DNA of 64,000 nucleotides from an uncultured Gammaproteobacteria bacterium (GTDB lineage Bacteria; Patescibacteriota; Microgenomatia; Levybacterales; UBA12049): the NCBI GenBank assembly GCA_965230895.1, contig OZ246394.1, forward strand, positions 29,723-93,722, in the 5' to 3' direction. The position numbers are program-made. Of this stretch, positions 36,001 to 39,000 are shown piece by piece. How positions within the stretch are numbered: the first letter of the stretch is position 1; every line of letters starts with the position of its first letter.

Positions 36001-39000
36001 TTAAACCAGCAGATATTATTCCCAGCTATTGATAATTTCATCCTTAAAGATATATTAGAAATCGTGTAAAGGTAACCCAAATTGACTAGAAATATCTTAT
36101 AGTTTGTGATAAACTATAGTATGGCTATTGGAGAATCTTTTGATAGTAGAAGACCCTCAAATGGTGAGACAGGCGGAAGATCATTTAGTGCGTCTATTCC
36201 AGAGGGGACACCTCCACCTTTGCGAAAAGTTGTATCGCCTGATACACGAGGAACTGGTGGGATTTCCCATGCTGCAAGACGTGTTGTGCCTCTTCCATCT
36301 CCTGACAGAGGTTATACACGGAAACATACAATACCTGCAGAAATTTCCGGAAGTGATATTACTGTTCCTGTTATTCCAACTACAGATACTTCGCCTCCAG
36401 ATCCCAAGCCCCGTTATGTACAAGAAAGAGAATTAGGTCATACTGTTACGTCAGTTCGTAAAGATGCCCAAGCCGTTGCAAGGGGAGTAGTCAGAGGAGT
36501 TGATCCAGAGAATGAAATGGGAGCAGCTGAAAGAACGAAATTATTCAATGATGAATGGAAGAAGATAGCAAGACAGAATGATGGTTTTGTTCAAGCCAGA
36601 GATACTTTAGCAGCTGGCCGTAGTGATGCTGCTCAGTTTACAGCCCATACTCACGCTTTTGATCCAGATACGCGTCCTGATCTCGAACAAGCTGCATCGC
36701 TTGGCGTATTACAAGCTGCTGAGAATTTCGATCCTGAGCGGTCTCAAAACTTTTTTATGCTTGCTTCTTTATCAGCTCAAAGTGAAGTTAACAGTGTCAT
36801 AAGAGGACAGCATCCCATCCATGTACCTCAACATGTTTTCCCAGAAAGAAAACAAGTACATACCGTAAATGATGTTTTAACACAAGAGCTACAAAGAGAA
36901 CCGACTGCACAAGAGATTGCAGAGAGAATGCATGAAGGATCTGATACTGATATCGATCCTGAGCGTGTAAGGTTATTGCTTCATTCTCCGGTATTTGATA
37001 GACATTTAATTCCTATTGGGACGAGTGATGTAACTGAAGGTTATCCAGTAGTTGATGAGGAGACTTTGCCGGATCAAGGCCGCCCAGTTGAAGACCACGC
37101 ACTTGATCAAGTGGAACTGCAGGGATTGATCGACAATGCTGGACTAACAGAGACAGAGGCATATGTACTTTTTCAACGATACGGGGAAGATCGGGAGAAT
37201 GGAGATATTGGTCAAGAATTATTTTATACTCCCCAAAGTATATCTCTAATTTCTCATGTAGCATTAGCAAAAATTAGAAACGCTGCAGGAATTCGACCTG
37301 ATGAAGAATCTTCTCGTAAAGGACAGCCTGCATCCTCAGCAGTCCTACAACGGAGAGCAGAATATTTACAACAAATGCGAGAACTACTCGATCCAGAAGA
37401 TCCAAAACCAAATGTGAAAGAATTAGCTGAGCAATTAGGAGTTTCTTTACGGACAGCATATAACTATTTAAATGAAATTAGGAGAGATCAATAACTCATT
37501 TTAGAGTCTTATAGTTTGTGTTAAAATAGCCTATGGCAATAAATAGAGAATTTGATGGGAGAACTCCAATCGGAGGAGCTGAAAGAACTTTTAGCTCGGG
37601 CGTGGAGGGTGCACCACCGCCAGTACAAAGAATTGTTTCTTTACCGCAAGATGGCGCTGTCCGTGGGCGTCAGGAGCGAGAAGGTTTTTCATTTACGACA
37701 GTTACTGTGGCAGATGCTCAAAATAAAACCTTATTTCGTGGCAAGATGGCACCTATTCAATGGCAAGAACCTCAGCATACTGCAGCAGTACACACAACGC
37801 ATCCTGAAATAATGGCTTCAGTCTTTGCTGAAGGTCCTGCTGCTTTTGACAAGCTTGATACAGATGGAGTGTTGCAAGTAACGTCTGCGGATAGTCATGT
37901 CTTGCGTAGTTTTTGGTACGACAGTGATCGGCAGCTCGTGACAGTAGCTCGCGGGGTAGTTTTTTTCAGAGAAAAGATGGCTGAAGAAGATGTTGCGCCA
38001 ATTGAATTACCGTCTCCTCCAAAAGGAAGTTCTAATTCTCCTATTGAGATGAGTTCTGCCGTGGAATTTGAATTTAAAGAATCACCCCTATATAGAAAAA
38101 ATCCAAGGATACAACAATCCTTTGCTACATTGGGATTTGATATGGACGAAGCTCGAAGAATATTTCCAACACCCAAGAGTTTTGCTGCAACGTTAGACCA
38201 GCTTCGAGAGGCTGATACTTCAGGTCTTTATTATCCTGAAGTATCACTATTGCCAGTAAGCCAGATTGATGCGAAGCCTTATCTTGAATCCTATGCAGCG
38301 GGGAAGCATCCTGTCGGTACTCATGGTTTTTATCATTACACACATGATACATCTTCTGATCACGCTGGGACGCTTATGACATTTGGCAAAAATATGATGG
38401 ATCTTATCCAAGGATATTCTCAAGTCATTTTGGAACGAAGAGGTGATACAGTAACATTTGCAGATACAGAACCTATAGATATGTTTACTGGTTTGGCGGG
38501 GCTTGAGGATTTAGATGATATAAATAACATAGTTCCTCATCGTATCGTGCGCGCTCTAGAGGATGCTGATCGTTTAAAATCCACGAAGATAGCTCAATGG
38601 ATGCATGCAAAGGGTATGATCCATCGTTGGGATGAGCTTACCCCAGAAGTCCTTTCTCAAGGGCTTCGCGCGGAAGCAAAAGCGAGATTACATGATTACA
38701 ATAATGGAAGAAGATGAGCTATCGGAGCTTTGTTTTCGAAGCAAGAATTGATATACTTAGTTCATGAAAATTATTGTTACGCATACCTCTCCTGACTGGG
38801 ACGCAATTACTTCCGTTTGGCTTCTTAAGAAATATCTTGCTGGTTGGAATGATGCTGAAGTTCGATTCGTGCCAGCAGGGAATAGACTGTCCGGACAGCC
38901 AGATCCATCAACGACCAAACACAAAGGTGAAGATCCGATTGAACGAATTGGTGATGATGAGATTATCCACGTTGATACAGGACTTCTTCCATTAGACCAT

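Follow-up and report, generated by a model that had tools for sequence, protein, structure and literature searches.

An open reading frame (ORF) at positions 36121-37494 on the forward strand of the DNA analyzed here, a 64,000-nucleotide window of contig OZ246394.1 (positions 29,723 to 93,722), encodes a very divergent protein of the sigma-70 family, as judged by profile comparison, PDB sequence search and predicted fold. Sequence and model together make it firm that this sigma-like protein has a sigma fold, non-canonical residues at the positions of DNA contact and an added helix-turn-helix (HTH) domain. It is equally firm, at the level of sequence, that the gene has a predicted leaderless promoter of the housekeeping type, and that the protein belongs to a tagged array, an island of genes whose products share an N-terminal leader, and that cargo families from this array recur with another tag beside a VirD4-like ATPase. 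Tentatively, and with confidence that stays below even, we propose that the sigma-like protein may be an effector of transcription that is sorted or delivered, and not one that regulates its own island.

The reading frame opens at ATG 36121, ends with a TAA stop at 37492-37494 and specifies 457 amino acids plus stop, while the mechanical frame starts at GTG 36106, a codon within the -10 element described below. Gene calls on three Logan contigs and on an NCBI contig (1,610,123 bp) include an identical protein, and samples SRR14271359, SRR14271360 and SRR14271365 contain it. An earlier note on this DNA had described the ORF as an RpoD-like sigma factor with segments of regions 2, 3 and 4, and the frame as well as all the peptides quoted in it are present. 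Membership of the sigma-70 family held under both profile and structure comparison. The Pfam domains Sigma70_r3 (PF04539; E 7.8e-8, 32.8 bits against a cutoff of 25.3, aa 244-285) and Sigma70_r4 (PF04545; E 1.1e-5, 25.3 bits against 24.1, aa 340-387) are found above cutoff, whereas Sigma70_r2 (PF04542) reaches only 17.8 bits against 24 over aa 181-211, equivalent to profile positions 19-49 of 71. Regions 2.1-2.4 are traversed by the longer NCBIfam and PDB alignments. The designation RpoD-like turned out to be imprecise, since all family models stay so far below their cutoffs that the protein is not assignable to a sigma group. The top NCBIfam match is the SigB/F/G subfamily TIGR02980 (2.2e-18, 66.8 bits against a cutoff of 234.35), the FliA-type model TIGR02479 gives 42.9 bits against 189.6, and the RpoD models give about 41 bits against cutoffs of 354-572 (TIGR02393, 41.2 against 354; NF005643, 41.7 against 500). 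By these profile scores the protein fits neither group 1 nor group 3. With phmmer, 51 distinct sigma sequences in the PDB could be aligned through their regions 2.2-4.2 to aa 186-388, the best match being the cyanobacterial SigA 8gzg_F (1.2e-10), and the sigma family phrog_351 of the PHROGs collection matches at 4.7e-23.

An AlphaFold model built from a 50-sequence alignment agrees with this assignment. It has a mean predicted local distance difference test score (pLDDT) of 75 with 204 residues at 90 or above, and the confident segments are aa 95-290, aa 324-390 and aa 404-456, while aa 1-89 and a linker resembling region 3.2 are disordered. When the model was compared with the PDB in Foldseek, 47 of the best 50 matches were sigma chains (F, G or P) of RNA polymerase holoenzyme or initiation complexes, all with probability 1.00, mainly the principal sigma A/RpoD and in addition sigma S, with E values down to 2e-8. 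Each of the remaining three of these 50, likewise at probability 1.00, is an integrative model of a B. subtilis protein pair, in one case SigA-RpoC. Viral sigma structures fit less well by fold than cellular sigma A (1e-6 against 2e-8).

Read from the N-terminus, the protein begins with the island tag (aa 1-45, 36121-36255; ..GGRSFSAS..GTPPPLRKVVSPD), which is seen in the leader alignment A1, scores 36.5 bits (E 7e-11) with a leave-one-out hidden Markov model (HMM) and has pLDDT values below 50. It is followed by a disordered Pro/Ser/Thr-rich linker (aa 46-94, 36256-36402), in which a short tag motif is repeated as RRVVPLPSPD at aa 53-62, the pLDDT being below 50 over aa 1-89. No folded domain corresponding to region 1.1 appears at the N-terminus of the AlphaFold model, where disorder is predicted. 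Then comes a long helix resembling sigma region 1.2 (aa 95-125, 36403-36495; pLDDT about 90), which is kept in the relatives P0007, P0008 and P0016 introduced below. Sigma domain 2 with regions 2.1-2.4 (aa 135-230, 36523-36810) partly keeps the core-binding motif DLxQ...G.L.A...FDP and has its -10 residues replaced. Domain 3 (aa 239-288, 36835-36984), the part matched by Sigma70_r3, retains the PxH of region 3.0, and the disordered linker resembling region 3.2 (aa 289-323, 36985-37089; pLDDT below 50 over aa 295-325) connects it to domain 4 (aa 324-390, 37090-37290), matched by Sigma70_r4, whose recognition helix reads TPQSISLIS against TRERIRQIE. The extra C-terminal three-helix HTH (aa 404-457, 37330-37491) resembles HTH_11, which is above the Pfam cutoff at aa 418-455 (E 1.3e-5, 25.4 bits against 25). 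It has weak similarity to the GntR/YvoA type, and equivalents are found in P0007 and P0008. Both the leader and the additional HTH had been pointed out in the earlier note and are indeed present. All of these features lie on the forward strand.

The replacement of residues at the DNA-contacting surfaces is extensive. When it is aligned with SigA, the sigma-like protein has Q, L, L, S, S and N in place of the -10 recognition and melting residues Y425, Y430, W433, W434, Q437 and T440 (numbering of E. coli sigma-70), and the segment FSTYATWWIRQAITR reads FFMLASLSAQSEVNS in the sigma-like protein. The HMMER alignment to SigA 8gzg_F confirms that the aromatic melting segment has been replaced, as the note had claimed, with 'LASLSAQSEV' in the place of 'ATWWIRQAI'. 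The -35 contacts R584, E585, R586, R588 and Q589 are all replaced, the stretch TRERIRQIE of region 4.2 having become TPQSISLIS. In the core-binding motif of region 2.2 D403 and Q406 are kept, while E407 is changed to A and N409 to S, and the His of region 3.0 is retained. Since both the -10 and the -35 contact residues are replaced, the sigma-like protein seems an unlikely reader of the canonical-looking elements in the island. If it works as a sigma factor, it must presumably read DNA differently, possibly aided by the added HTH.

The promoter of the sigma-like gene carries a block TAGTTTGTGATAAACTA at 36100-36116 (+), where an extended -10 element TGTGATAAACT (36105-36115) lies inside the inverted repeat TAGTTT / AAACTA. 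Because the -10 hexamer stops 5 nt upstream of ATG 36121, transcription probably yields a leaderless mRNA. The -10 and the start site of the gene are covered by a perfect 8-bp inverted repeat, TATAGTTT-GTGAT-AAACTATA; written in full the palindrome reads TATAGTTTGTGATAAACTATA. The earlier note had described the extended -10 context of the island promoters as distinctive, and in a narrow sense this is right: TGTGNTAWAMT has six matches, all within the island, against 0.76 expected. A 17-mer TAGTTTGTGnTAAAMTA (longer motif TAGTTTGTGNTAAAMTA) is found only at 34592-34608, 36100-36116 and 37512-37528 (three against 0.10 expected), where with its inverted repeat (TAGTTT-GTGnT-AAAMTA) it overlies the -10 of the adjacent genes starting at 34615, 36121 and 37533. 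These three genes also have the leaders that are most alike within the island, so that promoter plus leader looks like a duplicated module, and the shared 17-mer could be an operator or merely a part of such a module.

The general promoter type is found in the rest of the window as well. A TAnnnT hexamer lies 4-13 nt before the ATG at 13 of 16 island starts and at 16 of 28 non-island starts, compared to 15.7% of all ATG trinucleotides, and the typical layout window-wide is TAnnnT, often TGn-extended, 5-8 nt upstream of ATG with no Shine-Dalgarno sequence. Sequences of the latter kind are seen at 3 of the 44 starts. Housekeeping genes with the same layout include those at 1997, 7960, 38764, 59599 (-) and 62979. 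The organism evidently uses leaderless mRNAs throughout, as far as these start regions tell. An extended or TAnnnT-type -10 is the element read by the housekeeping sigma, and the promoters in the island resemble strong housekeeping promoters of a general type that is not specific to the island. No other conserved upstream motif spanning the island was found. The proposal that the sigma-like protein drives island-specific transcription is thus left unsupported, given the housekeeping-type promoters and the replaced contact residues.

The island (10087-38717) comprises 28.6 kb with 17 consecutive ORFs and a G+C content of 0.42-0.47, compared to 0.38-0.41 in the flanks. Its proteins are mostly orphans, with family matches only for the sigma-like protein, an extracytoplasmic function (ECF) sigma factor and a HerA-like ATPase. 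What they have in common, and what the earlier note had not described, is the leader. A tag of approximately 40 amino acids with the consensus ..RSF[SG]..G..P[PA]R..R[RK][IV]VSP[D] can be recognized by eye at the N-terminus of up to 17 island ORFs (alignment A1), and within the window a tag HMM matches island ORFs alone. When each protein was scored with a model from which it had been left out, 11 of the 17 were recovered at 12-40 bits, and any other ORF scored at most 11.8 bits. Within their first 120 residues the island proteins contain the core motif [RKHG][IV][VIR][SP][PLVA] 20 times in total, mostly at residue 28-48 and in some leaders two or three times over, as compared to once in the other 6,972 amino acids of the island and once in 10,147 non-island amino acids; this enrichment is descriptive, since the data that are counted also gave rise to the pattern. 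Across the paralogous leaders the codons for conserved residues vary synonymously, so that it is the tag peptide on which selection acts. Neither this tag nor the C-terminal tail of the relatives described below has a match in Pfam, NCBIfam, PHROGs or PADLOC. As there is no hydrophobic stretch after the RR motif, a reading of the leader as a Sec or Tat signal was rejected.

Relatives of the sigma-like protein carry a different tag at the opposite end, which the earlier note had not described either. In an exhaustive phmmer search against 1.84 billion (1.84e9) cluster representatives 1,944 sigma-like proteins were found, and only P0007 (1.9e-30) and P0008 (2.1e-29) stood clearly above the background of approximately 1e-11. 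In all, there are only about three relatives of the sigma-plus-HTH body among these representatives. In both P0007 and P0008 the helix resembling region 1.2, the sigma body and the C-terminal HTH are kept at approximately 30% identity, the N-terminal leader is absent, and the sequence ends in YG[IF]E...EE. A search of GTDB species genomes, IMG/VR and JGI metagenomes with alignment A3 gave nothing closer than generic sigma factors, and a word-indexed search returned only the protein itself and two RpoD proteins.

Both P0008 and P0016, which is sigma-like too, are encoded on one 44.5-kb Logan contig (SRR30654424_1210551; covered by L007 1-21449 and L090 1-12529) with the same G+C content and the same leaderless promoter style as the window island. 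All 17 complete ORFs of this contig end in [RK]YLG..[VI]F.RYG[IV][ED]..(15-20 aa)..E[IV][DE]E-COOH, and they include five sigma-like proteins and several proteins with multiple winged HTH domains. They surround a 1,879-residue VirD4/TraG-like ATPase without strongly hydrophobic segments, the C-terminal part of which matches Pfam T4SS-DNA_transf and TraG-D_C above their cutoffs and which itself ends in ...PTIDE. The two arrays are connected by a further family, as the C-terminal domain (aa 341-561) of the window protein 31299-32990, which reads GFLL[AG]IGN...I[SA]GI[QE].LGP.E..F[IL].DL, matches the L007 ORFs 11442-12338 (4e-25) and 9010-9963 (2e-12). Homologous cargo that is tagged N-terminally in one genome and C-terminally in another is as expected of portable sorting signals. 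None of the 17 island proteins and 14 proteins of the relatives' array has a strongly hydrophobic segment.

Two other island members deserve mention here. The first island sigma is a fairly canonical member of the ECF type and is encoded at 14560-15417 (+; Sigma70_r2 3.2e-13, r4_2 2.3e-7), so that the island indeed contains two sigma genes, as had been noted before. It is tagged (leave-one-out score 14.1 bits), with approximately 110 residues of tag and disordered linker in front of the sigma domains, and its closest solved relatives are mycobacterial SigE/SigH (88 bits). The only enzyme-like component recognized by the profile libraries is a 1,160-residue P-loop ATPase of the HerA/FtsK superfamily at 16943-20425 (-), which matches DUF87 and the PADLOC profile mad8 (3e-12) and weakly TraD, VirB4, CedD and HerA. 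Its tag is degenerate and scores only 5.4 bits in the leave-one-out test. Homologues are found on Streptomyces clavuligerus megaplasmids (24.6% identity over 618 residues, E 1e-26; L089 8533-11391), where the homologue shares an operon with an ADP-ribosyltransferase exoenzyme. The ATPase has no sequence relative in the PDB, a word-indexed search found only itself, and no similarity was seen between it and the N-terminal 1,089 residues of the VirD4-like protein of L007.

Some further observations concern the remaining ORFs. The ORF at 23121-24926 contains two tandem repeats of approximately 190 residues, 34% identical, with a pattern FRSDxRHPxxVF ... ExE like that of cholera and pertussis toxins. 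The idea of an ADP-ribosyltransferase is only a lead, as BLASTP against the Streptomyces enzyme and a PDB search were both negative and the AlphaFold model reached a pLDDT of 36.5. The ORFs at 28827-30128 and 37533-38717, the latter immediately downstream of the sigma-like gene, are paralogous (28% identity over 421 residues, E 1e-39). At 27992-28753 the tag and a linker of approximately 100 residues rich in Ala, Pro and Lys are followed by a lipobox-like stretch AATVAAGAAISLAACGSD, which is odd after a long N-terminus of cytoplasmic appearance. At the left border of the island, the protein encoded at 9193-9990 (-) is rich in Pro, Ser and Thr and has one hydrophobic anchor, at its C-terminus.

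The window is a piece of bacterial chromosome with genes for aminoacyl-tRNA synthetases, DnaX, phosphoribosyl pyrophosphate (PRPP) synthetase, PBP1 and G6PD. The PRPP synthetase is 90% identical to that of one metagenome-assembled genome (MAG) labelled 'Gammaproteobacteria' (CAZDOJ010000001.1), the nearest genome in GTDB, and 60-66% identical to those of MAGs from the Patescibacteria group / Candidatus Levyibacteriota. These identities place the organism in the Patescibacteria, of the Microgenomatia kind (Levybacteria-like), and the label of CAZDOJ010000001.1 is probably a mislabel. Secretion systems of type IV (T4SSs) are widespread in Patescibacteria and essential for epibiotic growth in Saccharibacteria (PMC12857230, PMC12102498). 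Such a lifestyle of the phylum, with a widespread secretion system that is essential where it has been studied in Saccharibacteria, fits the reading of the sigma-like protein as a delivered effector.

If the sigma-like protein is sorted or delivered, events might proceed as follows. The housekeeping holoenzyme would make the protein constitutively, its N-terminal tag would be recognized, and the protein would be sorted or exported into the cell on which the epibiont lives. There it could engage the RNA polymerase core via the partly conserved surface of regions 2.1/2.2 together with domain 4, promoters would be chosen through non-canonical determinants and/or through the HTH at its C-terminus, and transcription would be redirected or blocked in a manner similar to that of phage-encoded sigma factors. 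In this scheme we infer that the terminal tags may be interchangeable sorting signals with the sigma-plus-HTH body as cargo, and the step from a shared tag to an export or delivery signal is drawn by analogy from the C-terminal signals of T4SSs, the N-terminal signals of type III secretion systems (T3SSs) and the payload leaders of extracellular contractile injection systems (eCISs) with their loading ATPase. The wider proposal, that some Microgenomatia-like Patescibacteria could use arrays of soluble effectors with exchangeable terminal tags, including sigma factors and multi-HTH proteins, which are delivered to seize the RNA polymerase of a host, we hold to be rather unlikely. A literature search found no description of a secreted sigma factor, a sigma factor as T4SS substrate, or tags of this kind.

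Several observations weigh against delivery. The window was found to contain neither a secretion apparatus nor a membrane protein or a gene of a T4SS, and the window ATPase is HerA-like rather than VirD4-like, with matches to the mad8 defence profile and to Streptomyces plasmids. The ATPase of both arrays seems to bear a degenerate tag itself, which is not predicted by a pure substrate signal. Six of the 17 leaders, including that of the ATPase, were not recovered by leave-one-out scoring. When the leader alignment A1 served as query, nothing matched at E <= 10 and even the island's own proteins were missed, so that this search is uninformative on distribution. Known T4SS signals are C-terminal, not N-terminal. 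Finally, loss of the canonical melting residues is equally compatible with a non-canonical sigma factor acting locally or with a decoy.

The main rival to delivery is that the protein is an endogenous sigma factor that acts on its own core RNA polymerase in the patescibacterial cell, for the island or for another regulon, and that the tag serves a purpose other than export, for instance stability, assembly or a regulation shared by the tagged proteins. It is common for islands to encode regulators of their own, and the full sigma fold, the retained His of region 3.0 and the partial conservation of region 2.2 are in line with this explanation, as is the 17-mer with its inverted repeat at three adjacent island promoters, including that of the sigma-like gene, since it could be a recognition or operator site. 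However, the housekeeping genes have extended -10 leaderless promoters of just the type seen in the island, a protein with all -10 and -35 contact residues replaced is poorly suited to TAnnnT/TTGACA-type elements, and no alternative upstream motif is conserved across the island. It also gives no reason for the C-terminal tail that, in the relatives, runs through a whole array beside a coupling ATPase, and on balance we consider an endogenous sigma factor somewhat improbable. If the protein instead retains the core-binding or DNA-binding parts of a sigma factor but has lost the ability to open promoters, it might be a decoy or regulator that competes for core RNA polymerase, or an HTH repressor of the palindromic promoter block, in the producer or in a host. 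The loss of all canonical aromatic melting residues and -35 contacts, the added HTH and the perfect inverted repeat over its own -10 and start site would all suit such a role. On the other hand, group 3 sigma factors also lack the WW pair and are functional, E407 and N409 of the core-binding surface of region 2.2 are changed too, and we saw no evidence of dimerization, and we judge a decoy or repressor to be unlikely.

A further possibility is that the island is a mobile element, such as an integrative and conjugative element, a prophage or a plasmid-like element, whose proteins are co-transferred or packaged and whose sigma factor starts transcription of the element in a new host. This would agree with the G+C content above that of the flanks, the translocase-type ATPase with its weak TraD/VirB4 similarity, the two private sigma genes and the VirD4-type protein beside the relatives' array. 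Against it, Pfam, PHROGs and NCBIfam revealed no gene for integrase, relaxase, replication, capsid or portal functions, and neither a tRNA gene, an Rfam family nor flanking repeats were found. The tests for a phage origin (PHROGs, tblastn against phage records, and IMG/VR) gave only similarity to generic sigma factors, and we regard a mobile element as quite improbable. Least of all do we believe in a decaying, non-functional sigma paralogue. The sub-threshold region 2 and the lost contact residues could be seen as signs of decay, but the ORF of 457 codons is intact with a strong predicted promoter, every domain is confidently folded in the AlphaFold model, and the body plan is kept in relatives at approximately 30% identity, all of which makes decay very improbable indeed.

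To our knowledge, the control of another cell by a foreign sigma factor is so far known from phages only, and these bring the gene rather than the protein. If the sigma-like protein is delivered, it would be an injected sigma factor controlling the transcription of another cell, and the finding would amount to transcriptional hijacking between bacteria at the protein level with the first candidate substrates of an essential secretion machinery of the Patescibacteria. These bacteria constitute a large share of bacterial diversity and, where studied, are attached to other cells with an essential T4SS, the substrates of which are not named in the two reviews (PMC12857230, PMC12102498). In this respect the tagged orphan arrays provide a concrete list of candidate cargo. 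Even if the protein acts locally, a sigma factor without any canonical promoter-contact residue and with an HTH in addition bears on the limits to which the sigma scaffold can be repurposed.

Compared with known systems, the sigma-like protein resembles the group 3 sigma factors (SigB/SigF/SigG, FliA/WhiG) in the order sigma2-sigma3-sigma4, in having no region 1.1 and in lacking the WW pair of region 2.3, which is missing in group 3 as well. It differs from them in reaching only 66.8 bits against a cutoff of 234, in the region 1.2-like helix with an insertion, in the disordered tagged N-terminus of 90 residues and the extra C-terminal HTH, and in the absence also of an equivalent of Y430 and of the -35 contact residues. 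Phage sigma factors such as gp28 of Bacillus phage SPO1 and gp55 of T4 redirect the host RNA polymerase, and the likeness would be that of a foreign sigma seizing the core of another cell, if the protein is delivered; it also matches phrog_351 and, by fold, phage sigma factors. Unlike these, the sigma-like gene lies on a bacterial chromosome with no viral genes nearby, and it would be the protein and not the gene that is delivered. The likeness to T4SS substrates lies in the relatives' L007/L090 array, where an unstructured acidic C-terminal tail occurs beside a VirD4/TraG-type ATPase. In the window, by contrast, it is the N-terminus that carries the tag, the ATPase is of the HerA type, and neither a T4SS gene nor a type IV coupling protein is found; the sigma-like protein ends in ...YLNEIRRDQ without a shared tail, and the combination of C-terminal signal and VirD4-type partner is seen for P0008 and P0016.

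The payloads of eCISs (PVC/Afp) have disordered N-terminal packaging signals and are loaded by the AAA ATPase Pvc15 (PMC10097599, PMC11495950). Here too soluble proteins that are otherwise unrelated, and whose genes follow one another along with that of an ATPase, share a disordered N-terminal signal of approximately 50 residues, but the likeness is by analogy only, as the ATPase belongs to the HerA/DUF87 superfamily, the tags have no sequence similarity, and no sheath, tube or baseplate genes were found in the window, including the island 10087-38717 searched with Pfam and PHROGs. Taken by itself, the sigma-like protein is a variant of a known sigma family, while the tagged arrays could be something more.

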